From the UHGV virus genome UHGV-0260710: a DNA stretch of 40,346 bases. One strand, written 5' to 3'. Position numbers and translations under genes: made by a program. A model generated the notes under the pieces. The model saw only the letters and a program-made list of their open reading frames with translations. It did not search any database and was not told the origin of the DNA. The stretch is from a virus. This document shows, piece by piece, positions 499 through 29,823 of this stretch; positions within the stretch are counted from its first letter, which is position 1, and the number at the start of each line of letters is the position of its first letter.

Positions 499-2856
499 TT
501 AGACGGAACGAGCTTTCTTAGCGTATGACGCCTCCCAGCCACAGCCAACGATGGACACTGGGGTAGGATAATCTGACTCTAAGGTTAGACTCGTGGTTAA
601 TGCGTTACCATTCATAGCGAAGCGATACTGACCATCCCCAATGTTGGTAGTCCCGATGGTTTGCTGACCAAGGGTGTACCCATTAAAGGTGTTCACGAAC
701 TCCCGCTCACCGTTTCTGACAATGAGTCTAAGAGCGCCAGTGTCCTTGTAGTTGACCCAAGCCCGACGAAGTTGTAGGCGTCCAGTGTCTTCAGACTGAG
801 TGCCACTCTCGTCTTCAATCTTAATAAGGAACCGTGAGAACTTGTAGGACATCAGATAAGACCGTCCGATGAACACTGTACGTCCCGACCAATCGCCATT
901 GAGCATAGCCACAGTTGAGATGTCGGTCAGTTCACCAAGGTCCACATAGGCACCTTGACTGTCAATCAGATAGTACCGACCGGGAGACGGAGCGTTTCCA
1001 CCATAAGCAGAACCAATGTCGACCGTAGTCTTATAGGTGTCAGCGTTATATGAGCCAATTGGGATTACCATAGACACCTTGGAGTCAACGTGGAGTCTAT
1101 ACGGCTCTAATGGAAAGTCAGTTGCCTCCTTGATGAACTTAAGGTGCTCAAGGTCCACGCCGCCTTGGTGCTGACGAACAATGAACATGGTAGAGCCAAT
1201 CGACGCAGACGCCAGAATCTTATCAGATTTAGGGAACTCCCAGTGCGACCAAGAGGCTTGAAGCTGTACGCCGTCCTTAAACAAGAACTTGTAGATGTAG
1301 ATTCGGTTGTATGCACCTGTAGAGTTGACGCAGATGTAGTTCTCAGTCCCTGTACCTTGAATGTCAAACACCCCGTTAGGGATATAGGACAGTACGTGGC
1401 CAGTGGTATCATCGGCATCCTTCACGTCAGACACATCTGCTACAGCGAAGTAGCGCTTAATGCTGGTGAATGACCCACGAGGAGCTGAGAAGAAGACTGA
1501 GCGTCCTACAGCGAACGGTCTGGCATTATCGCCTAAGGCAAACTCTGAGCCTACATCAAGCTGGATAGACTTCGAGGTAAGGACCCCTGAGCTTGTCATC
1601 ACGAACTGCACCTCATCTGACCAAAGTAGTAGCTGCTCACTAAACGGAACGGCATACTTAAGGATTGAGATTCTAGGGTGACTTACAGCTACGTCAATAG
1701 GATCATCATCACTCAGTGTAGCCACACTCTTAGGGAAGAACGCAAAGTAGCTGGCTGAACGGCTCATGATTACGTTCTCTCCTGACAAGAACCCAAGCCT
1801 GTTCCTGTAGAAGAACACATCGTTAATCGTAGCATCCACGAAGCTAGGCATAGGGTTTGTGTCATCATTACCAGCACCACGCTTAGACCAGTCCAGAGTC
1901 TTGAGCTCAAAGGAGCCGTCAGATTGTCTCACCAGAGCATGAGGCATTGTGGTGTTATCGAACCCAGTGACCACTCCCGGCTCTACCGTCTCCTTCCACG
2001 TCTTAGTGTTGGAGTCATACATCACGTAATATTCATCGGCGCTACTGTTGGTCTCACCTTGAATCTTAATGATGTACCCATTTGGAGCCGCAAGAGGCAA
2101 CTTAGAGATTGTTTGCACCGTGTCGAGTACTGGGCTGATTAACTGGTTAGCGTAGCCATCCTCCGTCTCCACTGAGTTAATGTCAGTCCCTGAAGGGGCA
2201 GTGATTAACAGGAAGCCAGACCCAAGGTCGAACGTGAAGGTAGGGTAAGCAGCAACAAGAAGGTCTCTCAGAGCTGCACCGATAGCCTGAGCATCAACCT
2301 TAGGAGGGTCATTCTCGGCATCATTACCTGCTGGCAACTTATGCGAAACCTTAACGCCTCCGTTGATTCCTACCTTAAGGGTGCGACCATACTGTCCACC
2401 GCGCAGGTTAATTAAAGCACGAGCTTTACGATTATAACCAGAGTGTGACTTCTCGCTCCCACCTTTAACAATAACCTTACGGTTCACGATGAACGTATAG
2501 TCTGCAACGGTAACGACACGGATGTCATCTCGCGGGTTGGAAGACTTAACGTAATCTACCGCACCGGACACTGAGTATTGATTACCACTCAAGTCAACTA
2601 CCTGAATGTTGGACCCGTTGAACACGATGTAATACTGCTCCTGCTCATCACGGTTAATCAGGTGGAACTTAGGGTTGATCCCAACGTCGATGTTAAGACG
2701 TCTCTTGAAGACTGTAGGTGGGCGCTTCTGGAGGCCATCACTCTCGGATGACCAGCAGTTAACCTGTGCCTCGCCTTGGTCTGAGAACCTCAGTATATCA
2801 GGCTGCTGGCTAATGCCACCTTTAAGGTTCTTGATTGATTGAGTAATTAGTGGCAT
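499..2856 (-). CDS. gp12: Tail tubular protein B (gp12)
   Basis: 785-aa ORF; size and position match T7 gp12 (794 aa); follows gp11. Confidence 0.9.
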   Translation of the reverse strand: MPLITQSIKNLKGGISQQPDILRFSDQGEAQVNCWSSESDGLQKRPPTVFKRRLNIDVGINPKFHLINRDEQEQYYIVFNGSNIQVVDLSGNQYSVSGAVDYVKSSNPRDDIRVVTVADYTFIVNRKVIVKGGSEKSHSGYNRKARALINLRGGQYGRTLKVGINGGVKVSHKLPAGNDAENDPPKVDAQAIGAALRDLLVAAYPTFTFDLGSGFLLITAPSGTDINSVETEDGYANQLISPVLDTVQTISKLPLAAPNGYIIKIQGETNSSADEYYVMYDSNTKTWKETVEPGVVTGFDNTTMPHALVRQSDGSFELKTLDWSKRGAGNDDTNPMPSFVDATINDVFFYRNRLGFLSGENVIMSRSASYFAFFPKSVATLSDDDPIDVAVSHPRISILKYAVPFSEQLLLWSDEVQFVMTSSGVLTSKSIQLDVGSEFALGDNARPFAVGRSVFFSAPRGSFTSIKRYFAVADVSDVKDADDTTGHVLSYIPNGVFDIQGTGTENYICVNSTGAYNRIYIYKFLFKDGVQLQASWSHWEFPKSDKILASASIGSTMFIVRQHQGGVDLEHLKFIKEATDFPLEPYRLHVDSKVSMVIPIGSYNADTYKTTVDIGSAYGGNAPSPGRYYLIDSQGAYVDLGELTDISTVAMLNGDWSGRTVFIGRSYLMSYKFSRFLIKIEDESGTQSEDTGRLQLRRAWVNYKDTGALRLIVRNGEREFVNTFNGYTLGQQTIGTTNIGDGQYRFAMNGNALTTSLTLESDYPTPVSIVGCGWEASYAKKARSV

Positions 2857-21247: not shown

Positions 21248-23929
21248 TTAAGCGAATGCAAAGTCTGAAGACAGGATGTCTTCGATATTCAGTTTGCCTT
21301 TCTTCGGAAGCTCAGGCAGCTTGTCGCGCTGGCTCTCGTGAAGCTGGTATTCGAACTGCTCGTAGAAGTCAAGCAGCACGTCGTTGTCGCGGTATGTCTC
21401 GACCATCGTCTCACGGACACCACGGAACAGATACTCAGCGTCAGCCGGGATGGTCCCGAAGCTATCATGAATCACTGCGAACGACATCACGCCATATTTG
21501 CGGTGAGTGTGGACTACAGTCTTGCGTAGGTGGCTACCATCTTGTGAGTGGACGAAGTTCGGGCTAATGCCTGACTCCTGCTTGTGCTTGTCCAACTCTT
21601 TCTTCGTGCCTTTATTGACGGTAGGCTGAAGGTTGAATGACCCTAAGAACATCAGGTTCAGACGAGTGGTATCCTTCTTGCGGTATTCCTGCCAGACCGG
21701 GAAACCATCAGGTGTTACCCAGTGTACAGGAAGGCAAGGCTTCAGGATTTCCCCGGTCTTTTTGTCCTTCACTTCAGCAGCCAGCAGCTTGGCAGCACCC
21801 TGAAGCCACTTCATCGCGTCAACAGCAGCAACTACGGTCACACTCACAGCTTCCCAAATCATCTTAGCCATGAAGCGAGACGCTTGGCTTGGCTCGGTGA
21901 ACATAGCGCCAGACCCTGAGTCAATCGCTGGAATCACGATGTCCTCGTACACTTGGTCTGCGAAGCCGTACTCTTTCGACCCATAGGCCAGAGTCATGAC
22001 TGAACGCTTAGTGACCTTTCGTGACATACCGTAGGTCAGCCACTGGCGGGCCAGCTCTCGTGTCCCCAGCTTGATACGTTCGGTAATCTCACCCGTTTTC
22101 TTGTCCTCGTGAGTTACCATCTCGTTGTCCGTGCCGTTAACCAGCAGGACTTTAAGCTCTTCCTCAATGCGGTCAGACACTATGCGGTAGATGTCTTGTA
22201 CCTTACCGGAAGGCGTCAGGTTTACTGCATGTCCACCGATGTGGTCACGAAGCATCGCGCTAAAGTGCTGAATCCCAGAGCAGGACCCATCGAATGCTAT
22301 CGGCAGCGAGCAGGAGTAAGACAATCCGTGATGCATTACGCCAGCATACTCGAAGCAGAACGCTAGGAAGCAGAACGGAGAGTCTAACTTACCCCACCAC
22401 TCAATGCTGTCCATCGGTGCCTTAGCGGTAGCCATGATGTTGTCGTGGTTATCTTCCACCCACTTGATGCGCTCCTCGAAGGTTACTTTATCAATACCCG
22501 CACAGTTTGCACCGTGGACCTTCAGCCATTTGAAACCATCAGCACCAATAGGCTTACCGACTGCCAGAGTCAGGAGACCCTTTTGCATGTCGTTACCCTG
22601 AGGGTTGAACATCGGAACAGCGTAGACACGACCGCGCCAGTCCATATTGTACGGGAACCAGATGGCCTTGAACTGAGAGAACTTGTTCGCTTGGTTAACG
22701 ATAAAGCTCAGTGACAATCTACGCGACTGCCGAGCCTTCTCTCGGCGGTAGATACCAGCAGCAGCCTTCTTCCATGCCTTAAGTTCCTCTTCAGTCTCAC
22801 CCGCATAGTCTTCAGGCTTCAGTGGCTCCATCTGAGGGATGTCATCAATAGGCGTGTTGTTCAACTTCTCGACCATGTTCACCACGTCCAGAACCTTCTT
22901 GTTCACTTTCCAAGGTGTATTCTGGATGATGTTAACAGCGTCATATACTTCAGGCATGTACACGTCTTCGTAACGTGCCACCGCAGACTTAGACCCTAAG
23001 CGAATCAGTGGTAGTGGTCTGCGTCCTTTGGCCCAGTACCCACCTCCTACGACACCAGTCCACGGCTTAGGTGGAACGACGCAAGGCTGGTAGACTGGAG
23101 CGATACCCGCAAGGCTGAAGCCTCGTTGCGCCATCTTCTTGACCCAGAAGTCTGACAGGTGGACCATCTCGACGTCAGCCGCTGCATTGCCAGCACCGTA
23201 ACGCTTAAGCTCGACCAGTTGTGTTGACTGGATGATAATCTCAAGCATCTTGATTCCAACGTGGACAGCCTCGGTTGGACTCCAAGTCCCCCACGCATCT
23301 TCCAGTTGGCCTTGCTCAAGCATGGATGCCTCAACCGCTTGCATGTAGGCTTTCTTGTAGGATGCCCCAGCTCGCTTGTTCAGGTTCTCGGCTATCGCCT
23401 TCTTGAAGTGCTCCTTCTCCTTGTCACGGATGCGACCGAAGCGGATTTCGTCCTCAAGTGTGCGACCTATCGCGGATGCCATCGGTGTAATCGGTATCCC
23501 TTCAGGCTTGACCAGCTTGGAGAGTATGACCTTCAGTATGATTACCGCAGCAGACTCGCAAGAGATACGCAGAGAGCGGTCCTTGACGGCCTTCTCTTCA
23601 GTGCTCAACATGGTGAACGCTACGCTAGGACGAGAGGTTGACAGCTTCCCGTCTGGGCCTTCATGCCACTCCCTGACGGCTTGCGCAATCTTAGGGACCA
23701 GAGTCTGCATCAAAGGCTTGGCGACCTGATTGTCTGCCAGTTCCCCGCGCTCAGTCTGTCGCTCAAGGTTCTTGATGAAACGTCGCTCGCCTTCAGTGTA
23801 TGCCTCATGCTCAAGCTGAAGCTGTTTGACTGCAAGGTCTTGCCCGTAATGGTCAGCCAGCAGGTTAAACGGCTCAATAGCGTTAGACACATCAGAGAAG
23901 TCGTGTTTGTCAATAGAGATGACGCTCAT
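21248..23929 (-). CDS. gp1: Single-subunit DNA-directed RNA polymerase (T7 gene 1 family)
   Basis: 893 aa; extensive collinear identity with T7 RNAP (DHYG, FQPCVVPPKPWTG..GGGYWA.GRRPL, RYEDVYMPEVY, WFPYNMDWRGRVYAV.MFNPQGNDM.KGLLTLA.GKPIG, SPFCFLAFCFEYAGV.HHGLSY.CSLP.AFDGSCSGIQHFSAMLRD, VTKRSVMTLAYGSKE.GF, HKQESGI.PNFVHSQDGSHLRKTVV, IHDSFGTIPADA, ends SDFAFA). Confidence 0.98.
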   Translation of the reverse strand: MSVISIDKHDFSDVSNAIEPFNLLADHYGQDLAVKQLQLEHEAYTEGERRFIKNLERQTERGELADNQVAKPLMQTLVPKIAQAVREWHEGPDGKLSTSRPSVAFTMLSTEEKAVKDRSLRISCESAAVIILKVILSKLVKPEGIPITPMASAIGRTLEDEIRFGRIRDKEKEHFKKAIAENLNKRAGASYKKAYMQAVEASMLEQGQLEDAWGTWSPTEAVHVGIKMLEIIIQSTQLVELKRYGAGNAAADVEMVHLSDFWVKKMAQRGFSLAGIAPVYQPCVVPPKPWTGVVGGGYWAKGRRPLPLIRLGSKSAVARYEDVYMPEVYDAVNIIQNTPWKVNKKVLDVVNMVEKLNNTPIDDIPQMEPLKPEDYAGETEEELKAWKKAAAGIYRREKARQSRRLSLSFIVNQANKFSQFKAIWFPYNMDWRGRVYAVPMFNPQGNDMQKGLLTLAVGKPIGADGFKWLKVHGANCAGIDKVTFEERIKWVEDNHDNIMATAKAPMDSIEWWGKLDSPFCFLAFCFEYAGVMHHGLSYSCSLPIAFDGSCSGIQHFSAMLRDHIGGHAVNLTPSGKVQDIYRIVSDRIEEELKVLLVNGTDNEMVTHEDKKTGEITERIKLGTRELARQWLTYGMSRKVTKRSVMTLAYGSKEYGFADQVYEDIVIPAIDSGSGAMFTEPSQASRFMAKMIWEAVSVTVVAAVDAMKWLQGAAKLLAAEVKDKKTGEILKPCLPVHWVTPDGFPVWQEYRKKDTTRLNLMFLGSFNLQPTVNKGTKKELDKHKQESGISPNFVHSQDGSHLRKTVVHTHRKYGVMSFAVIHDSFGTIPADAEYLFRGVRETMVETYRDNDVLLDFYEQFEYQLHESQRDKLPELPKKGKLNIEDILSSDFAFA

Positions 23930-23997
23930 ACTTAAAGTCCTTGTTATTAGTCTTTCACTTAAAGTCTCTTTGGTCTTTCACTTGGAGTCTTAGACCT

Positions 23998-24020
23998 TGA
24001 GTCCTATAGTGATAGTTAAG
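23998..24020 (-). promoter_or_regulatory. Phage RNAP promoter directly upstream of the RNAP gene (TTAACTATCACTATAGGACTCA; +1 ~24003, 73-nt leader)
   Basis: Family motif between the last small early ORF and the RNAP ATG; leader contains an 11-bp direct repeat AAGTGAAAGAC x2 and an AAGGA RBS. Confidence 0.6.
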
Positions 24021-24026
24021 TCAGAA

Positions 24027-24353
24027 TCACTTGCATATCAATGGGTTAGCGTGAAGATGACTGAAGTCACCATGAGTCGTGTGCTTGACGGTTGACCGTT
24101 GGTCTATCGCCTTCCAGCCTGAGACCAGAAGTTTACCATCTTCGGTGATTGGTTGCCCACCATACGCCAGACACATCAGTTCGGACTTATGGCCCTCAGC
24201 CCGCATACGTCGCTGTAAGAACATGTCACGCTCCTTCTGTTGACGTATGGTGTGGCTTGATGTTCCGTGACGATACCCGGTAACCAGTAGGCTTAACATT
24301 TGCATGTCTGCGTCCATAGAGTGTACCAGATTAATCCCGTATGACTTGTTCAT
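24027..24353 (-). CDS. Hypothetical early protein (108 aa)
   Basis: ORF coupled by ATGA overlap to the upstream 65-aa ORF; occupies the region where T7 has 0.5-0.7; no kinase motifs. Confidence 0.5.
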   Translation of the reverse strand: MNKSYGINLVHSMDADMQMLSLLVTGYRHGTSSHTIRQQKERDMFLQRRMRAEGHKSELMCLAYGGQPITEDGKLLVSGWKAIDQRSTVKHTTHGDFSHLHANPLICK

Positions 24354-24550
24354 TACATTTTGCTCCCAAGTGTTGCTATATCCCAGACGTTCGCTAAGTT
24401 GCGCATGAATCGTCCATTAGGTTGACGTACAGTCCAGCGACCCAGACGTACATAGTTGAATTTGCAGACTTTACGCGCTTTATTTATGTCCCTCATCAGC
24501 ACGTAGGCGATAAGTCCATAGCCTATGACTATCAATAGTGCAAGACTCAT
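24353..24550 (-). CDS. Hypothetical early membrane protein (65 aa, N-terminal TM helix)
   Basis: MSLALLIVIGYGLIAYVLM hydrophobic N-terminus then basic region; ATGA-coupled on both sides. Confidence 0.5.
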   Translation of the reverse strand: MSLALLIVIGYGLIAYVLMRDINKARKVCKFNYVRLGRWTVRQPNGRFMRNLANVWDIATLGSKM

Positions 24551-24636
24551 AATGATTTCCGTTTAATACAGTCGTATATCCCATAGACTATCATCCAGAT
24601 AACTGGCGCTAGGCAGACCCAATATCCCACACTCAT
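24547..24636 (-). CDS. Small hydrophobic peptide (29 aa, MSVGYWVCLAPVIWMIVYGIYDCIKRKSL)
   Basis: AGGAG RBS upstream of ATG at 24634-24636; stop overlaps next start (ATGA); below ORF-table cutoff. Confidence 0.3.
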   Translation of the reverse strand: MSVGYWVCLAPVIWMIVYGIYDCIKRKSL

Positions 24637-24706
24637 AGTTAACTCCTATTAATGCAAGTGGTAATCTTTGAGGCCACCTATCAGTCGATGACCTCTCGTC
24701 TATCAC

Positions 24707-24832
24707 TCAGTACCCACCTGTCAGCGTTATGGTCAGGCTATGGTGATTCGCCACGTAGCAAGCCCCGCGCTTCATCATCTCGTAGCATCCATCGTAGAAC
24801 GCCTGTTCACTGCTATAAGTTATCTGGTACAT
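24707..24832 (-). CDS. Small hypothetical early ORF (41 aa)
   Basis: ATG 7 nt after the stop of the upstream 66-aa ORF; hand translation MYQITYSSEQAFYDGCYEMMKRGACYVANHHSLTITLTGGY. Confidence 0.3.
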   Translation of the reverse strand: MYQITYSSEQAFYDGCYEMMKRGACYVANHHSLTITLTGGY

Positions 24833-24838
24833 TGTTGC

Positions 24839-25039
24839 TTACCCTTGGAATCCTACAGTGTTGGGCCATAGCGTAACGGTTTTACGCTTGGAGGTGATAA
24901 GGTCGGTAAATGATATCCGATATGCTGTGCCCTCAGGTGCTAGTATGTTGCCCACATAGCTCTTGGTAGTTATGCGTATTGGACCATCGCCTACCAGATA
25001 TACGGACTTAAGTCTATCAATTATATCGTTGCGTTTCAT
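24839..25039 (-). CDS. Hypothetical early protein (66 aa)
   Basis: ORF whose ATG overlaps the stop of the upstream 53-aa ORF (ATGA). Confidence 0.45.
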   Translation of the reverse strand: MKRNDIIDRLKSVYLVGDGPIRITTKSYVGNILAPEGTAYRISFTDLITSKRKTVTLWPNTVGFQG

Positions 25040-25197
25040 TGTTGGTTATCCTCAGCGTGCAAGCTGTCGTGTATGCGCTTGCGGCCCTCGTAGACCGCCT
25101 TCAGGTGACGTATAGCCGCATCGTGGTTTAACTGCCCGGTCTTGACCATAATCCGGGCGTTGGTGACGTGGTGCTGGCATAGACCGTAAGTTACCAT
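25036..25197 (-). CDS. Small hypothetical early ORF (53 aa), translationally coupled to Ocr
   Basis: ATG shares the A of the Ocr TGA stop (TGATG); hand translation [53 protein letters not shown]. Confidence 0.35.
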   Translation of the reverse strand: MVTYGLCQHHVTNARIMVKTGQLNHDAAIRHLKAVYEGRKRIHDSLHAEDNQQ

Positions 25198-25709
25198 CAC
25201 TCGCAGTCATCCTCAGCAGACGCAGGGTCGAACACTACGTTATCGTTGATGTCCTCGACCTTCAGGTGGCGACCTATCGCATAGTGATCTTTGGCACATG
25301 CAGTAGCGACATCAAGTGATACAGCTTGCTCAACGAATAGGCCTGTTTTAGCGTCTACTACCCAGTATTCTCCCTCCTCGTAGCAGCGCTCTTCAGGCTC
25401 GAACCAGACCACATCAGAGCTATTAGACACATCGTTATACAGTGCCTCATAAATGCGAGCTTGTAGGATGCGCGTTACGTCCTTGGTATCAGGCATCAGC
25501 CCAGAGTCTTCGAACTCATGGTCAATACCATCAGCAGCCATCACCGTGAAAATCTCGTGGTAATAGTGCGGAACCATATTGTCTACGACTTCATGTAGCG
25601 CATCGTAATAATCATCGCCTTCAGCTATTTCGTCGTACTGAATGCGCTCGTTAAATGCTTCAACGGTTGCAGCCAGCAGCTCATAGTATGCGTTAGCGTT
25701 ACGTTCCAT
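25197..25709 (-). CDS. ocr: Ocr-like anti-restriction protein (gene 0.3) with C-terminal extension
   Basis: 170 aa; core [36 protein letters not shown] matches T7 Ocr (117 aa); about 55 extra C-terminal residues. Confidence 0.85.
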
Positions 25710-25924
25710 AATTATATCCTCTCAAAGTTGTTTGTGTATGTTAGTGACTATCAGTCAGGACCCTGAGCCGCTCAAGTCAAGCCCGTCTCGCGGTAGACTC
25801 AAGGTCCTGTAGTTAATCACTATCGGCGCACATTAAGAGTTTATCCAGATTGTTAAAGAGCATTCCCTTCAGTCAGAGGACTTCAGGTAGACCATTTCAG
25901 TGTTGGTCGTCACCGTTGTGTCGA

Positions 25925-26067: not shown

Positions 26068-26103
26068 GGAAGCTATTAAGCCATAGTCTAGACCTATAGT
26101 CAA
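26068..26103 (-). promoter_or_regulatory. Candidate host sigma70 early promoter (A1-like): AT-rich UP region, TTGACT-17nt-CTTAAT
   Basis: -35 TTGACT at 26098-26103 with 17-bp spacer; first promoter-like element downstream of the end-repeat arrays. Confidence 0.4.
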
Positions 26104-26224
26104 TAGGTAATTTGAAATAATATTGATTGAGCTATCGTCGGCCCCATGGTGTAAGAGGATATAGTCTTTGACTAACATGTCTTAGACTTTAAGTCTATAT
26201 CCTTGTGTCTATTAACCGTTGGTC

Positions 26225-26480
26225 TCTGACTGTAGGTGTTGGTGTCTTATGGTTGAGACTGTAGGTTGTTAGACTGTAGGTTGTTAGAACTGTGGTTGTG
26301 ACTTATGGTTAGTGAGACTGTAGGCTGTAGGCTGATGGTTGTGACTTAGGGTCTGATACAGATAGAGACTCAGAGGCAGACCCATAGTCCCAACCTATCG
26401 TCCTTCCCTAAGCCATAGCCACAACCTATCGTTGACCTAACGTCTTGACCATCGGTCCAACCTTATGATAGACTGGGGGT
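26225..26480. repeat. Arrays of short degenerate repeats characteristic of T7-group genome ends
   Basis: 26225-26355 reiterates (G)ACTGTAGG(T/C)TGT / CTTATGG / CTTAGGG units (CCTACAG-type on minus strand); 26380-26475 carries CCATAG / CCTATCG / CCTAAG-type units in the opposite orientation; non-coding. Confidence 0.6.
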
Positions 26481-27117
26481 AGGGCCTTTGGTCTGGACTG
26501 AAAGAGGGCCTATGGGGAGACTTGAGGTTCTTGAACTGTGAGATGTGGTCTCAAACTTTTGGTCCAAAACTCATCGAAGACTGTAGGACACAGCCACTGT
26601 AGGTCAAGGACCGTAGGTCAGGCGACACTAGGATAGACCAATAAGTAGGATGACCCTAAGTGAGCTTCTCTTAAGGTGTTACCTAAAGTCCTTGACTACA
26701 GTAGCTAAGGTCAGTAGAGTAGCGTCAGCTATGAACTGACCTTAGGTCTTCCGCTCATGAATCGTTACCATGATTGCATTAATTGCACTGAGAGACCAGA
26801 GAGCATACGAGAGTCTCGACCCACCCGACCCACTGACTTCCAGCAGTAACGCCAGAAGCAAGTAGAACAGCAGCAAGAAACCTGTATGTAGCTCGATTGG
26901 TCGCCAGAGCTTTAAGTACAGCTTTGGTCTTTGCCATATGCTACATACCTCCTGTATCTATGGTCGGTGACTATCTGTATTGGAGGGATTATGATTAATA
27001 TCACCCTCCTTCCATCGGTGCAAGCCTTAGGTAAGAACTCGGAGTCTGCCTCCTAAGGTCTTGCATAAAGTCTGCATATGTATATTCACTACAGTAATAC
27101 TATAAGTAACCGGGGGT

Positions 27118-27263: not shown

Positions 27264-27612
27264 CTATTGCATCCTGTAAGCTATCGGTAGCATATCTATA
27301 GGTAACACCGTCCTTCGTCTGGCTAGTCTTCCACTTACCTGAACACCTCTTAATACTGTGGGCCAGCACCTCATGTCCTGACTCTTTCCTCTTCTTACAG
27401 CATTAACCGAGTTCTGAGACTTTGTGGCAAGCCGTAGGTTTTCTCTACGATTGTTCAACTTGTTCCTGTCAATATGGTCAACAACCATTCCATCAGGCAC
27501 TGGTCCGTAGAACATCTCGTACACTAAGATGTGCACAAAATGCTCATGGACCTTGTAGTATTTACCGACCAGACCCGACTATACAGCCGGGAACGCTATC
27601 GTCGTACTTCAT
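27264..27612 (-). pseudogene. HNH endonuclease paralog split by a frameshift (remnant or requires recoding)
   Basis: GTG-initiated 90-aa ORF (27264-27536) holds the HNH core HILVYEMFYGPVPDGMVVDHIDRNKLNNRRENLRLA; 15 codons in another frame upstream (MKYDDSVPGCIVGSGR, with TAGGAGGATAA-ATG RBS) plus the open HNH frame (..GKYYKV..) align to the N-termini of the intact paralogs (..[13 protein letters not shown]..); coordinates +/-1. Confidence 0.45.
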
Positions 27613-27623
27613 TTATCCTCCTA

Positions 27624-29390
27624 TTAGTGGAACGTAATGTATGACCCTAGTCCCAGCTCGTCGTCCGTATCGTGAGTTACCCGGACCCCATTGTCCCAGA
27701 ACTCAGTGTGGATGGACTCGAAGCCTTTCCGTGGGTTCTCCATCTGTTCCTCCAGCCACTCCTCAGTGACTTCACGTTCGCCCTTGTTGGCATCCTTAGC
27801 CATAGACTCAACGAAGAACTGTACACCGATAGCCAGCGCATCAAGTCGGTCATCGTGTGCCAAGGCGCCACGTTCACGAGAGATACGTGTCATCTGGTAG
27901 AAGAGAGAGTAGATAGGGTTACGAACACCATCCTTATCAGAGGCCGACTGGTAGTCTTGGACGATAGCAGCAGCGTTAACGATAAGTCGGTGAGACCCCA
28001 TGATAGGCTCCAGAACGTCACAGATGCGTAGTTCTTTCTGCCCCTTACTCTTCACTTCAGTTACAGCCGCAGGATGTATACGGGCCGCTACAGGCTTGAA
28101 TAGCTCAAGGTACATACCATCACCGAAGTTACCCTCAATGACGTATTCGTTGACCTTCCACTTACGACCAATCTTAGCCAGTGCTTCAAGCGTAGAGTCT
28201 TCATAACCACCACGCATGCCGCCAACTTCCATAGCGAAGATGTAGCCGTTGAGCTGGTACAGTACCGCATATCCAGTTTCATCCTTACCACGACCACTAG
28301 GGTCAATGACCAGAATCTTCTGGGTGTACGAACTGAAGGCAGAACCTACAGTCTGATACGTGTGGTATGAGTCTCCCATGAGTCCAACGTTAGGAACGTC
28401 CTCACGCTTGTTCTGAGGGTTTGGCAGCCATTGGTAGACCATTGGGCTGGACGCTGGGTCCAAGTCTGCTACGATAAGGTCACGGAGCTTCAGAGGGTAC
28501 TTCTCGGCATCACTCAGGTTCGGGTTAAGCATGAACTGTAGAGCGAAGCCAGCTTTACCGTAGGACAGCTCACGTTCCTTCAGGTCAGTATCGTCGAATC
28601 GAACTTCATCGGTCGGACGCCAGTAGTAGGCCTCAGGGTCCTCTTCAAGCTCTGCCTGAAGCATCGGTGCCAGACGGTAGCCGTAAGACTGCCAGTCCTT
28701 CTTATCACGTGGATAACGAGCAGGCCAGATAGTAGTGGTGTACCCACGGCCTTCCAGCTCACGATACAAGGTCATCTCGTTCTGAGGAGTACCCAGATAG
28801 ATGATTGTACCTCCCGGCTTCAGGATAGCGTCGAACTCTTTCACAAGCTCTGATAGACGGTCTCGTGCAGCCTGAGTCGCTGAGTTGTTCGGAACCTCCA
28901 CGTCATCGGCAATCAGGATGTCAGCACGACTACCAGTCAACTGACCAGTGATACCAACGGACTTAACCGAAGGTGAGTGGTCTGGCTTGGCGGGTCCAAC
29001 GTCAAAACTGATAACCGCATCTCGCTGTCCCTGCTTAGGTTTGAGTTCCTGAAGCTGAGGCATGAGGTCGATGATTCGCTTGATGAAGATGGAGTTAGCA
29101 TCGGCTCGTTCCTTTGATGCCGACACAATCATGAACTTCAAGTCTGGGTTGTTCCATAGCTTCCAGACCACAAAGCCACAGGTCAGAAACGACTTGCCAA
29201 TACCACGGAAAGCCTGAAGGATGAAGCGGCGATTATCCCCAGCAGCCAGCTTCTTACACATATCTATCTGGCAGCGGGTTGGAACCGGAAGGCTTAGCGC
29301 TTTCCAGAGAACGAAGATGAAGAACACGAAGTCGTCCTGCATCCTTTGGGTCATTTCTGCCTGTCTTTCAGCTGGTGTTTTCTTAGACAT
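27624..29390 (-). CDS. gp19: Terminase large subunit (gp19)
   Basis: 588 aa; near-collinear with T7 gp19 ([124 protein letters not shown]). Confidence 0.95.
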
Positions 29391-29823
29391 AGAGTCCCTC
29401 CAACATTAGGTCCCGGACAGCGATAGCCTCCTCTAAAGTGGGACGTGTTGTGCGCATACGGACTCCCTTACGCATAACCTCGATGGCGTAGCCGTTCTGG
29501 TGGAACGATACGTTCTTAACTCCAGTCTTTGAGTCAGAATGACCTGAGGTGTTGCAGGAGTTCGCGCTTGAAGTAACTAGCCGGAGGTTGTCCAGCCTGT
29601 TGTTAGTTCGGCAACGGTCGATGTGATCAATCTCCATGCCTTCTGGTATGGGACCGTTGGTTAGCTCCCAGATTACCCGATGAGCCAGCAGGAGTCCATG
29701 ACGTCTAGTTCCTACCTGATAATACCCGTGGTTTCCAACACACCCAACGTCCTTACCTGAACGAAGTGACTTCAGGCCAGACTTACTGGACTCATCATAA
29801 GTATACGAATCACTGAGCATCAT
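29383..29823 (-). CDS. HNH homing-endonuclease-like protein overlapping the terminase start
   Basis: 146 aa; [41 protein letters not shown]; 3' end overlaps TerL ATG by 8 nt; absent at this position in T7. Confidence 0.85.

Follow-up and report, generated by a model that had tools for sequence, protein, structure and literature searches.

Among the class I genes of phage T7, Gp0.4 is an inhibitor of FtsZ, Gp0.6 is an inhibitor of MreB and gp0.7 combines the roles of kinase and host shutoff. In T7 Ocr, residue F54 was reported to be necessary for dimerisation (PMC9122126), and in T7 Gp0.4 substitution at V15, V22, W28, M32, L35 or Y39 abolishes the toxicity of the protein in E. coli, which serves as proxy for FtsZ inhibition (PMC13423816). 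The T7 kinase has been described as a broad anti-defence factor (PMC13645617). In case of phage K1F, infection leads to filaments with multiple Z-rings in which FtsZ is blocked; according to the 2022 study describing this phenotype, gene 0.4 is absent from K1F and the FtsZ inhibitor is unknown and probably novel (PMC9372555). Here we have analysed the early region of the UHGV virus genome UHGV-0260710, a stretch of 40,346 nucleotides that we refer to as the window, and compared it to these systems.

Results

Layout and coding status of the early region

With an identity of about 92–94% to the DNA of Providencia phage EPr2 and other Kayfunavirus genomes in a megablast comparison, we assign the window as a whole, circularly permuted genome of a K1F-like, T7-related Kayfunavirus. 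As stated in a preliminary description of this DNA, Ocr is followed by six small ORFs of 53, 66, 41, 29, 65 and 108 residues (hereafter o53, o66, o41, o29, o65 and o108). Ocr itself has 170 residues, and the cassette is located on the minus strand and extends from position 25709 to 24027 (Table 1). The overlapping stop and start codons ascribed to most of them are found at four of the six junctions (TGATG between Ocr and o53, ATGA between o53 and o66 and between o29 and o65, TAATG between o65 and o108), with gaps of 6 nucleotides between o66 and o41 and of 70 nucleotides between o41 and o29, and an SD-like GGAG, GAGG or GGA motif is located 6–13 nucleotides 5' of every ORF start.

We consider it about 85% probable that this cassette is an ordinary class I operon, expressed early and dedicated to host takeover, which is colinear with genes 0.3 to 0.7 of T7 and T3. 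The earlier view of the region as T7-group early operon with Ocr in first place and without gene 0.7 was upheld. The layout is not distinctive, with 261 phage records, K1F among them, matching the cassette region. The layout is common to K1F, EPr2, SH3 and CLB_P1, and the gene order is also the same in CHX131, 22664UKE3-2 and an identical Logan contig. The kinase-less cassette is a trait of the entire genus and nothing peculiar to the window.

Table 1. Features of the early region; positions refer to the window.
Feature	Coordinates	Strand	Properties
Leader 5' of Ocr, long irregular hairpin	25710..25870	minus	position of T7 RNase III site R0.3
Ocr, gene 0.3 homolog, long form	25197..25709	minus	170 aa; Pfam PF08684, PHROG 2568
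o53, assigned as T7 gp0.4 homolog	25036..25197	minus	53 aa from ATG; Pfam PF26807 (Phage_T7_GP04)
o66, accessory gene	24839..25039	minus	66 aa; PHROG 16587 (E=8e-14); ATGA overlap with o53
o41	24707..24832	minus	41 aa; PHROG 33188
70-nt intergenic element, stem-loop	24637..24706	minus	T7 R0.5 position; parts two coupled gene blocks
o29, single-pass membrane peptide	24547..24636	minus	29 aa; basic KRK tail, SD AGGAG; gp0.5 slot
o65, assigned to T3 gene 0.6 family	24353..24550	minus	65 aa; PHROG 2385
o108, basic His-rich orphan	24027..24353	minus	108 aa; PHROG 7066; 0.7 slot; TAATG overlap with o65
Phage-RNAP promoter-like site TTAACTATCACTATAGGAC	23990..24025	minus	between o108 and gene 1
RNA polymerase gene	23929..21248	minus	893 aa

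The preliminary description had conceded that the small ORFs might lack conservation and coding signal. A coding signal was found in each of them, with dN/dS values in the range of 0.09–0.31. In pairwise comparisons with up to 18 related loci, the ratio amounts to 0.17 for Ocr, 0.21 for o53, 0.09 for o41, 0.19 for o29, 0.25 for o65, 0.31 for o108 and, calculated from one pair only, 0.21 for o66, with the N-terminus of the RNA polymerase providing a comparison value of 0.03. Because these ratios are low across related loci, the ORFs are beyond chance, and we regard all seven, as judged from their sequences, as real genes. It is hardly credible that o29 and o41 would instead be chance ORFs within conserved non-coding RNA or DNA elements. 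Although both were omitted by an automatic gene caller on the identical contig and o29 does not belong to a family in any library, the tight conservation of o41 was observed at a dS of 0.27 and the ratio of o29 at a dS of 0.51, length, start codon and SD are kept across 10–14 loci, and both genes were called by other annotators. Moreover, the 110 phage records that contain o41, often at 100% identity, include phages of other genera, and Pectobacterium and Rahnella phages carry it as well.

By analogy to T7, host RNA polymerase would transcribe the operon after DNA entry from left-end sigma-70 promoters. These promoters are predicted from their position, and a generic promoter scan identified seven sites compared to 5.5 expected in shuffles, which does not amount to an enrichment. 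Translation may be coupled by the overlapping stop and start codons in two blocks, one consisting of Ocr, o53, o66 and possibly o41, the other of o29, o65 and o108. The MFE fold of the intergenic element contains the hairpin GAGGUCAUC...GGUGGCCUC, which is nested in an outer stem and kept in 12 of 14 relatives irrespective of the upstream gene, with changes in the stem being mostly one-sided; an Rfam scan of the region gave no match. The fold of the Ocr leader, with its hairpin at about 25760–25830, has an MFE of -52.5 kcal/mol over 166 nucleotides. As judged solely from their position, where T7 has R0.5 and R0.3, both hairpins may be recognised by RNase III, and the transcript would probably be cut at these sites. 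The promoter-like site preceding gene 1 agrees with the 23-nucleotide consensus shared by 10 further sites of the window, and all 18 Kayfunavirus loci compared, K1F among them, have kept it.

Ocr and its C-terminal domain

The reported enlargement of Ocr is evident from the match of the Pfam ocr model, which covers residues 8–96 (111 bits compared to a cut-off of 25) and is followed by 60–70 additional residues. The protein is related to the Ocr structures in the PDB (1s7z/2y7c, E=2e-28), shares 53% identity with T7 Ocr and has a pI of 4.1, with Asp and Glu accounting for 41 of its 170 residues. F54 is invariant in an alignment of the family that includes the T7 protein. Ocr is predicted to act as dimeric DNA mimic directed against type I restriction-modification and BREX.

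In an AF2 model (pLDDT 79 for the whole protein and about 90 at residues 115–160), the DNA-mimic part comprising residues ~1–104 is connected by an acidic linker (~105–113) to a compact C-terminal domain (~114–162) of about 50 amino acids with beta-beta-alpha-beta-beta topology, which precedes an acidic tail. In the 72 phage records that contain it, this domain is always part of a Kayfunavirus Ocr, and short Ocr alleles of 110–114 residues in the same genus do not contain it. Its best match in the PDB has an E-value of 0.16, there is no match at sequence level in PHROG and Pfam, and a Foldseek search of BFVD yielded nothing beyond small phage proteins without a name, which matched weakly. The predicted fold resembles small alpha/beta proteins of the ClpS or ribosomal L7/L12 type and covers about half of the ClpS core, but sequence similarity is absent and many unannotated small phage proteins match as weakly. 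This resemblance does not constitute evidence for an adaptor function.

In sister phages, Ocr is replaced by a 174-residue protein (PHROG 11084), for which neither similarity to T7 gp0.7 nor a Pfam match was detected. The protein has a kinase-like look (GKGAF...VDCF) and is listed as Ser/Thr kinase in the record of Dickeya phage Luksen, and its identity as kinase is only a lead. An apparent gp0.4-like ORF within the same gene was found to be an artefact of single-linkage clustering.

o53 as candidate inhibitor of FtsZ

Several lines of comparison identify o53 as a diverged homolog of T7 gp0.4. A match to the Pfam model PF26807, which is found on Kayfunavirus-type as well as T7-type proteins, was precomputed for an identical protein on another contig (L023). 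In our local Pfam scan, T7 Gp0.4 itself was unmatched and the local copy thus does not contain this model. PHROG cross-matches between o53 and T7 gp0.4 are reciprocal, hhalign relates the Kayfunavirus and T7 subfamilies with 91.5% probability (E=8e-7, 47 columns), and BLASTP aligns both proteins with 39% identity over 41 residues, in an overall range of 34–39%. The gene also adjoins gene 0.3, with base 25197 being common to o53 and the stop codon of Ocr, and a GTG one codon 5' of its ATG would extend the protein to 54 residues. The concern that the small ORFs might turn out as homologs of characterised T7 0.4–0.6 proteins was partly justified, with o53 as relative of the FtsZ inhibitor gp0.4, o65 as homolog of T3 gene 0.6 and o29 located in the gp0.5 slot.

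Four of the six positions that are relevant for the toxicity of T7 Gp0.4 and were reported as FtsZ contacts are identical in the alignment, where V11, V18, L32 and Y36 of o53 correspond to V15, V22, L35 and Y39. In the remaining two, M32 is conservatively replaced by Ile, with Met being found in most relatives, and W28, a reported contact residue, is His in o53, which counts against FtsZ binding. Across the Kayfunavirus subfamily, L32 and Y36 do not vary, and o53 differs at the majority of the residues on which the sensor CapRel(Ebc) relies (PMC13423816). By homology to gp0.4, o53 most likely binds FtsZ and inhibits cell division, and the peptide would do so by binding FtsZ monomers to stop the assembly of the Z-ring. 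If it is indeed of the gp0.4-type, FtsZ inhibition without triggering of CapRel would be predicted.

In K1F-type phages, profile evidence shows that the gene of 49–53 residues adjoining Ocr is a diverged gp0.4. The reported filamentation by K1F would be explained by inhibition of FtsZ by a peptide of the o53 family, and o53 and its K1F ortholog (YP_338091) appear as obvious candidates for the 'unknown' inhibitor. For the predicted block of division, the multi-ring filaments of K1F-infected cells (PMC9372555) provide indirect support.

The membrane peptides o29 and o65

The preliminary description had predicted two membrane peptides, which we attribute to o29 and o65 with values of 1.87 and 2.53 for the best 17-residue Kyte-Doolittle window, and both are annotated as transmembrane in the record of EPr2. 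The gene encoding o29 is kept in 13 of 18 related loci and always contains 29 codons. Neither PHROG nor Pfam provided a match, and homology to T7 gp0.5 (PHROG 16572) was detected neither by PHROG nor by BLASTP (E=5), its likeness to this protein being confined to position and ATGA coupling. In the divergent locus L021, the same slot is occupied by a 45-residue protein that matches the T7 gp0.5 family PHROG 16572 and that is connected by ATGA to the 65-residue gene, with the hairpin standing at the same position.

We assign o65 to the T3 gene 0.6 family, to which it is related by BLASTP (40% identity over 63 residues, E=4.5e-9) and by a shared match to PHROG 2385 (2.5e-32 for o65 and 9e-30 for T3 gp0.6). 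Its ortholog is named gene 0.6 in the annotations of K1F and EcoDS1, and the family comprises 678 phage records from Kayfunavirus, Przondovirus, Teetrevirus and Kvp1. The protein is predicted to contain an N-terminal membrane anchor followed by a very basic cytoplasmic tail with a pI of 11. T7 gp0.6A, a member of PHROG 8393 instead of 2385, is unrelated to o65, and neither BLASTP nor tblastn revealed a homolog of T7 gp0.6A/B among the cassette ORFs. Taken together, o29 and o65, which occupy the slots of 0.5 and 0.6, would be small proteins of the inner membrane and may modify the envelope or membrane.

Accessory genes and mosaic organisation

Among 19 related loci, o66 is present only in the window and one other (L007). 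Its sole close phage record is ECO104 4-5-2 (98.5%), and the remaining homologs, which are 33–46% identical, are found in Przondovirus, Teseptimavirus Bas104, Vibrio phage ICP1 (ORF24) and the jumbo phage 121Q. This gene is a sporadic accessory gene, and o41, whose slot in K1F and some of its relatives contains a 55-residue membrane protein (PHROG 7319), would with o66 form the accessory genes of the operon. A presence/absence matrix and a pan-cassette analysis of related loci have defined the operon as a mosaic, where interchangeable accessory slots surround a stable core. Its variants include an Ocr-gp0.4 fusion in P0222, an o29-o65 fusion in ZG49 in which most of o65 was lost, and the deletion of o29 and o65 with retention of o108 in CR44b.

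o108 and the absent gene 0.7 kinase

The claimed absence of the gene 0.7 kinase, which falls in PHROG 2828, is confirmed by tblastn searches of the whole window with gp0.7 of T7 and T3, which gave no match at E<=1. Similarly, 0.7 was not found in a scan of the window with the T7 proteome; the other inhibitors of host RNAP are present, with homologs of gp2, gp5.5 and gp5.7 being found. Its slot is occupied by o108, which is present in 19 of 19 related loci and in 224 phage records, where it is annotated as hypothetical throughout. The protein is found in 153 protein clusters, with listed long contigs of about 40 kb, and its HMM identified only 13 clusters, and no kinase, among 1.84 billion representative proteins. 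The conserved core comprises the last ~85 residues with the motif T-x-GDF(S/T)HL, the histidines H55, H91, H99 and H101 are conserved, and the copy of K1F contains an in-frame TAG. No match was found in the PDB, Pfam or NCBIfam, and an AF2 model obtained from a 36-sequence alignment is unusable at a pLDDT of 47. In a search of all T7 and T3 ORFs with filters off, the HMM gave no match below E=0.3 and left gene 0.7 unmatched.

Two candidate relationships of o108 were rejected. The first concerns the C-terminal shutoff domain of gp0.7, where the sole signal is a 19-residue basic stretch with an E-value of ~0.2–0.4, and where the HMM found nothing. The second concerns the resemblance of the N-terminal NLVHSMD to the RNAP motif NFVHSQD. 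As 16% of shuffles attain its Smith-Waterman score of 37, this resemblance is attributed to chance. We propose that o108, a basic protein specific to its lineage, is dispensable and would replace gene 0.7 in position without being homologous. We have also rejected the JSS1_004 kinase as Kayfunavirus homolog of 0.7. This protein was described from Salmonella phage JSS1 (PMC13645617), whereas the record of Escherichia phage JSS1 (KX689784) contains a standard cassette without kinase, and since the published kinase is missing from KX689784, we do not claim a link. As a side observation, the Ser/Thr/Tyr content of early proteins is 0.167 in the window and 0.121 in T7, a difference in the direction of a kinase-less phage obtained from a sample that is too small.

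Discussion

The described properties of the cassette raise the question of counter-defence. Given the broad role of the T7 kinase in anti-defence, it is a reasonable inference that a kinase-less phage relies on other counter-defences. It is possible, although with odds well below even, that at least one of o108, o41, o66, o29/o65 or the C-terminal domain of Ocr acts as an effector of anti-defence or host shutoff not described before and makes up for the absence of the gp0.7 kinase. The genes are early, small, fast-evolving and mosaic and located next to Ocr, as typical of counter-defence loci, and the kinase with its broad role in T7 (PMC13645617) is missing from the window. Besides, o108 is placed exactly in the 0.7 slot and universal in the genus, o66 moves horizontally among unrelated phages including ICP1, and the C-terminal domain of Ocr is modelled as an independently folding add-on whose presence depends on the allele. 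However, homologs of known anti-defence proteins were detected neither in PHROGs, Pfam, NCBIfam and the PDB nor in an HMM scan of the whole library. The proteins o66, o41, o29, o65 and o108 do not match entries of Pfam, NCBIfam or the PDB, and the matched PHROGs families are labelled 'unknown'. The nonsense codon in o108 of K1F and the deletion of o65 and o29 in CR44b imply that these three genes are dispensable on laboratory hosts, which fits an anti-defence role and any other accessory role equally. The characterised T7 neighbours 0.4 and 0.6 act on the host cytoskeleton rather than on defence systems. The more specific proposal that o108 and/or the C-terminal domain of Ocr is a new counter-defence or host-shutoff effector, which would enable kinase-less Kayfunaviruses to infect defence-rich pathogenic Enterobacteriaceae, is unlikely. 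Both orphan modules are reasonable choices when this genus, in which the T7 kinase is missing, is screened for anti-defence functions.

It is quite unlikely that o29, o65 and o108 would form one module, with the membrane peptides anchoring or regulating a soluble basic partner, for example in superinfection exclusion, the control of DNA entry or the inhibition of a membrane-associated host factor. Overlaps of ATGA and TAATG couple the translation of the three genes, which follow an SD and a hairpin of their own, and most Kayfunavirus loci as well as the divergent L021 contain them together, in one order and directly 5' of gene 1. This coupling by overlapping codons is, however, general among early genes of the T7 group, T3 and Przondovirus carry the gp0.6 family without o108, and, conversely, CR44b contains o108 without o29 and o65 and ZG49 has lost most of o65.

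The preferred reading of the region as ordinary class I operon defines 0.4, o65 and o108 as core early genes of therapeutic K1F-like phages and Ocr alleles, o66 and o41 as swappable. Its closest described counterparts, K1F (NC_007456), EPr2 (OM256482), SH3, CLB_P1 and EcoDS1 (with genes 0.3, 0.35 and 0.6), share 82–93% DNA identity over the region. The order common to K1F-type phages consists of a long Ocr of 169–170 residues, a gp0.4-like protein of 49–53 residues, a variable slot, a 65-residue '0.6' and the o108 family (gp0.37/0.38 in K1F record AM084414), which precede a phage promoter and the 893-residue RNAP, with gene 0.7 contained in none. The window is distinguished by the rare o66, which has one close database match among related phages, by the presence of o41 and o29 instead of the 55-residue membrane protein of K1F and by its intact o108, which in K1F is a copy of the 86-residue type broken by a TAG.

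The logic of the operon and the order of its slots equal those of genes 0.3–0.7 in T7. There, the end of 0.3 coincides with the start of 0.4 at base 1278 in a one-base overlap resembling Ocr/o53, and a four-base overlap of 0.5/0.6 resembles the ATGA of o29/o65. In contrast to the window, T7 Ocr does not contain the added C-terminal domain, and the two additional genes following 0.4, o66 and o41, are absent in T7. Conversely, T7 gp0.5, gp0.6A and gp0.7 have no sequence homolog in the window, where the 0.7 slot is occupied by the unrelated o108. Directly 5' of gene 1, the window contains a phage promoter, whereas the matching position is annotated only with host promoter C in T7 and with promoter C and the RNase III site R1 in T3. 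The early genes 0.6 and 0.65 of T3 and phiYeO3-12 are a further counterpart. T3 carries a SAM hydrolase in place of Ocr and contains 0.65, for which no homolog was found in the window, and the 0.7 kinase after 0.6. Finally, T3 gp0.6 and o65 share a length of 65 residues, an N-terminal membrane helix, 40% identity and their common assignment to PHROG 2385.

Organization and identity of the early cassette

The Ocr-like gene and the six small ORFs behind it, named by their length in amino acids, occupy exactly the positions given in the preliminary description, and its statement that most are linked by stop/start overlaps holds for four of the six junctions (TGATG, ATGA, ATGA and TAATG), with gaps of 6 and 70 nt at the remaining two. 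A Shine-Dalgarno-like motif is located 5' of every start. The check for coding signal that had been named at that stage was run here and yielded pairwise dN/dS values of 0.09–0.31 at dS of 0.13–0.51 for comparisons of the window with up to 18 related loci, against 0.03 for the N-terminus of the RNA polymerase; since the window is one partner in each pair the values are non-independent, with every ORF pointing in the same direction. The cassette ORFs are genuine genes. The two predicted membrane peptides correspond to o29 and o65, whose N-terminal segments are strongly hydrophobic and lead into basic residues.

Features of the early cassette and of other regions discussed in the text
Feature	Position	Strand	Remark
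Ocr-like	25709..25197	-	
o53	25197..25036	-	
o66	25039..24839	-	
o41	24832..24707	-	
o29	24636..24547	-	
o65	24550..24353	-	
o108	24353..24027	-	
Phage-RNAP promoter-like site	23990-24025	-	TTAACTATCACTATAGGAC; directly 5' of gene 1
RNA polymerase gene (gene 1)	from 23929	-	893 aa; next after o108
TTGACT -35-like hexamer with overlapping phage-promoter-like site	26070-26110	-	TGACTATAGG at 26093-26102
Short direct repeats	~26230-26340	-	ACCTACAGTCT/AACAACCTACAGTCT; non-coding left end
Gene 19.5 homolog	26937..26779		
HNH-type endonuclease-like ORF	27264-27536	-	
Large terminase gene	29390..27624		
HNH-type endonuclease-like ORF	29383-29823	-	

All long ORFs of the window are located on the minus strand. 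In megablast searches the cassette region matched 261 phage records, 23 of them at a coverage of at least 80%, the closest being Providencia phage EPr2 (91.8% identity) and the others Kayfunavirus genomes with Escherichia, Salmonella, Citrobacter, Enterobacter and Klebsiella as hosts. A 20-kb stretch of the window gave an agreeing result (93.7% identity to EPr2 at 96% coverage). A scan with all T7 proteins detected homologs from gene 1 to gene 19.5, arranged as in T7 and in a series wrapping around the window ends, which makes the window a complete, circularly permuted Kayfunavirus genome. The two HNH-type ORFs, one on each side of the large terminase gene, both contain motifs such as 'DHIDRNKLNNRRENL' and are probably homing endonucleases.

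A gp0.4 homolog next to Ocr

The small ORFs had been described as unassigned, which still applies to most of them, with the exception of o53 and o65. In BLASTP, o53 shares 39% identity with T7 gp0.4 across 41 residues. Both proteins match the same PHROGs in opposite order of strength: 5058 strongly and 25044 and 7202 weakly in case of o53, 7202 strongly and 25044 and 5058 weakly in case of gp0.4. A profile search seeded with Kayfunavirus-type and T7-type proteins returned 151 proteins, with PF26807, the Pfam family named Phage_T7_GP04, precomputed on all 120 matches listed, and the same family is matched by an identical 53-aa protein encoded on a Logan contig. Aligned by hhalign, the 18-member Kayfunavirus-type and 14-member T7-type alignments correspond over nearly their full length (91.5% probability, E=8e-7). 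T7 0.4 and o53 also take the same place in the operon, where o53 overlaps the Ocr stop codon by one base. Collectively, these comparisons identify o53 as a homolog of gp0.4; in some existing annotations its relatives are already called '0.4', 'gp0.35' or 'putative host cell division inhibitor'.

T7 Gp0.4 binds monomeric FtsZ, its toxicity is abolished by V15A, V22A, W28A, M32A, L35A and Y39A, and it contacts the CapRel(Ebc) sensor through A12, T14, L16, S19 and R23 (PMC13423816). In the aligned o53, V15, V22, L35 and Y39 are identical, M32 is replaced by I (M in most relatives) and W28 by H, and the CapRel-contact positions hold Q, H, T, R and K. Accordingly, o53 is predicted to act as an FtsZ inhibitor and probably to evade CapRel(Ebc). 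Infection by K1F leads to multi-ring filaments, and this phage was reported to have no gene 0.4 and to act through a peptide described as unknown and probably novel (PMC9372555). Its o53 ortholog (1623..1772, 73% identity to o53) is the obvious candidate for this peptide.

The long form of Ocr

The enlarged Ocr-like gene noted previously is real: the Pfam ocr domain covers residues 8–96 (111 bits) and is followed by an extra segment, and the protein matches the solved T7 Ocr structure with E=2e-28 at 53% identity to T7 Ocr. In place of the short acidic tail that closes T7 Ocr, the window protein has an acidic linker, variable in length, and then a conserved C-terminal domain (CTD) of ~50 residues (YWVVDAKTG...). 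In an AlphaFold2 model based on 26 homologs (pLDDT 79 overall), residues 115–160 form a unit of beta-hairpin, helix and beta-hairpin with pLDDT ~90. At sequence level the CTD is an orphan without relatives beyond Kayfunavirus Ocr, and no described function was found for it. It exists solely as fusion to Ocr in 72 phage records, K1F among them, while short alleles of 110–114 aa without CTD circulate in the same genus and some sister phages have no Ocr, so the 'enlarged Ocr' is a known, common allele. In P0222, a protein found on seven contigs, Ocr and most of the CTD are naturally fused in frame to the last 19 residues of the gp0.4 homolog; the fusion apparently arose by a deletion between the copies of a repeated motif, 'GRHLK' / 'RHLK'.

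Accessory genes and the second block

Within the genus, o66 is rare and was found only in this window, in the related locus L007 and in one partial record. Its homologs at 33–46% identity reside in Przondovirus, a Teseptimavirus, the Vibrio phage myovirus ICP1 (ORF24) and the jumbo phage 121Q; this spread over unrelated phage groups, podoviruses among them, is typical of mobile accessory genes. The following o41 is the most constrained of the small ORFs (dN/dS 0.09) and 100% identical across many genomes; K1F-type genomes can have a 55-aa membrane protein in its stead.

The 70-nt gap 5' of o29 folds into a stem-loop that is kept in 12 of 14 relatives regardless of the preceding gene. Its region has no Rfam match; since T7 and T3 contain the RNase III site R0.5 at this place, the stem-loop may by analogy act as an R0.5-like site. 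The membrane peptide o29 has a constant length of 29 aa among relatives and no family was found for it. In the divergent relative L021, its slot holds a 45-aa protein of the T7 gp0.5 family with the same ATGA overlap with the next gene, and o29 is thus a positional counterpart of gp0.5, though not a demonstrable homolog. The protein o65 is of equal length as the T3 gene 0.6 protein, with 40% identity and a shared N-terminal helix, both belonging to PHROG 2385, a family with members in 678 phage records from several genera of Studiervirinae, and it is unrelated to the MreB inhibitor T7 gp0.6A.

The last gene, o108, was found at all 19 loci examined and in 224 phage records, each labelled 'hypothetical'. 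In a set of 1.84 billion representative proteins it accounts for no more than 13 clusters; long contigs bearing related matches measure ~40 kb. Its conserved core comprises the last ~85 residues, with a basic helix preceding ...DGKLL...HT-x-GDF(S/T)HL, and its N-terminus occurs in three length variants. No homolog was found in T7 or T3, gp0.7 included, there was no match in the PDB and the predicted model was unusable. The K1F ortholog (NC_007456, 2205-2465) contains an in-frame TAG at codon 13 (MKTVYINRPSIR*...); it is unannotated in this RefSeq record and split into gp0.37 and gp0.38 in AM084414. Since, besides this stop codon, CR44b is devoid of o29 and o65 and ZG49 carries a partial deletion of both, o29, o65 and o108 are dispensable on laboratory hosts.

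The missing kinase and comparison with T7 and T3

As described initially, the gene 0.7 kinase is absent, with no gp0.7 homolog anywhere in the window, and this absence is a trait of the genus; for the remaining modulators of host RNAP, gp2, gp5.5 and gp5.7, the T7-protein scan did detect homologs. In view of recent evidence that the T7 kinase counters many defences (PMC13645617), a search for compensating functions in a kinase-less cassette is reasonable, although no computation here assigned an anti-defence function of this kind to its genes. The value of the analysis lies in the gp0.4 assignment of o53 and in singling out the orphan modules, o108 and the Ocr CTD, as worth testing. The kinase JSS1_004 is absent from KX689784.2 ('Escherichia phage JSS1'), which is a Kayfunavirus whose cassette is of the standard type without kinase; the published protein is described from a Salmonella phage JSS1 (PMC13645617, PMC12345140), and the two phages could be confused by their common name. 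In sister Kayfunaviruses without Ocr (loci L006, L008, L009 and L014; e.g. L008:2420-2941), the Ocr slot holds a 174-aa protein of PHROG 11084 with kinase-like motifs (IGKGAF..., VDCF), which is labelled Ser/Thr kinase in Dickeya phage Luksen; further homologs occur in Pseudomonas, Cellulophaga and Seurat phages. Similarity of this protein to T7 gp0.7 was not detectable, and Pfam gave no match.

The phage-RNAP promoter-like site 5' of gene 1 is complete and is kept in 18 of 18 Kayfunavirus loci, K1F included, whereas the T7 and T3 records show at this position only host promoter C, plus the RNase III site R1 in T3. Its placement directly before the polymerase gene would imply positive autoregulation. 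The direct repeats between the gene 19.5 homolog and the early promoters are reminiscent of the arrays beside the T7 terminal repeats, and the hexamer overlapping a phage-promoter-like site resembles the left end of T7, where phiOL and host promoter A1 lie close together; a generic sigma-70 scan did not single out the early promoters. Overall, the cassette is the ordinary Kayfunavirus early operon and can be placed slot for slot on T7/T3, with Ocr as 0.3 and o53 as 0.4, followed by two inserted accessory genes and the R0.5-like hairpin, the membrane peptide as 0.5, the T3-type protein as 0.6 and a non-homologous orphan in the place of 0.7, ahead of gene 1.
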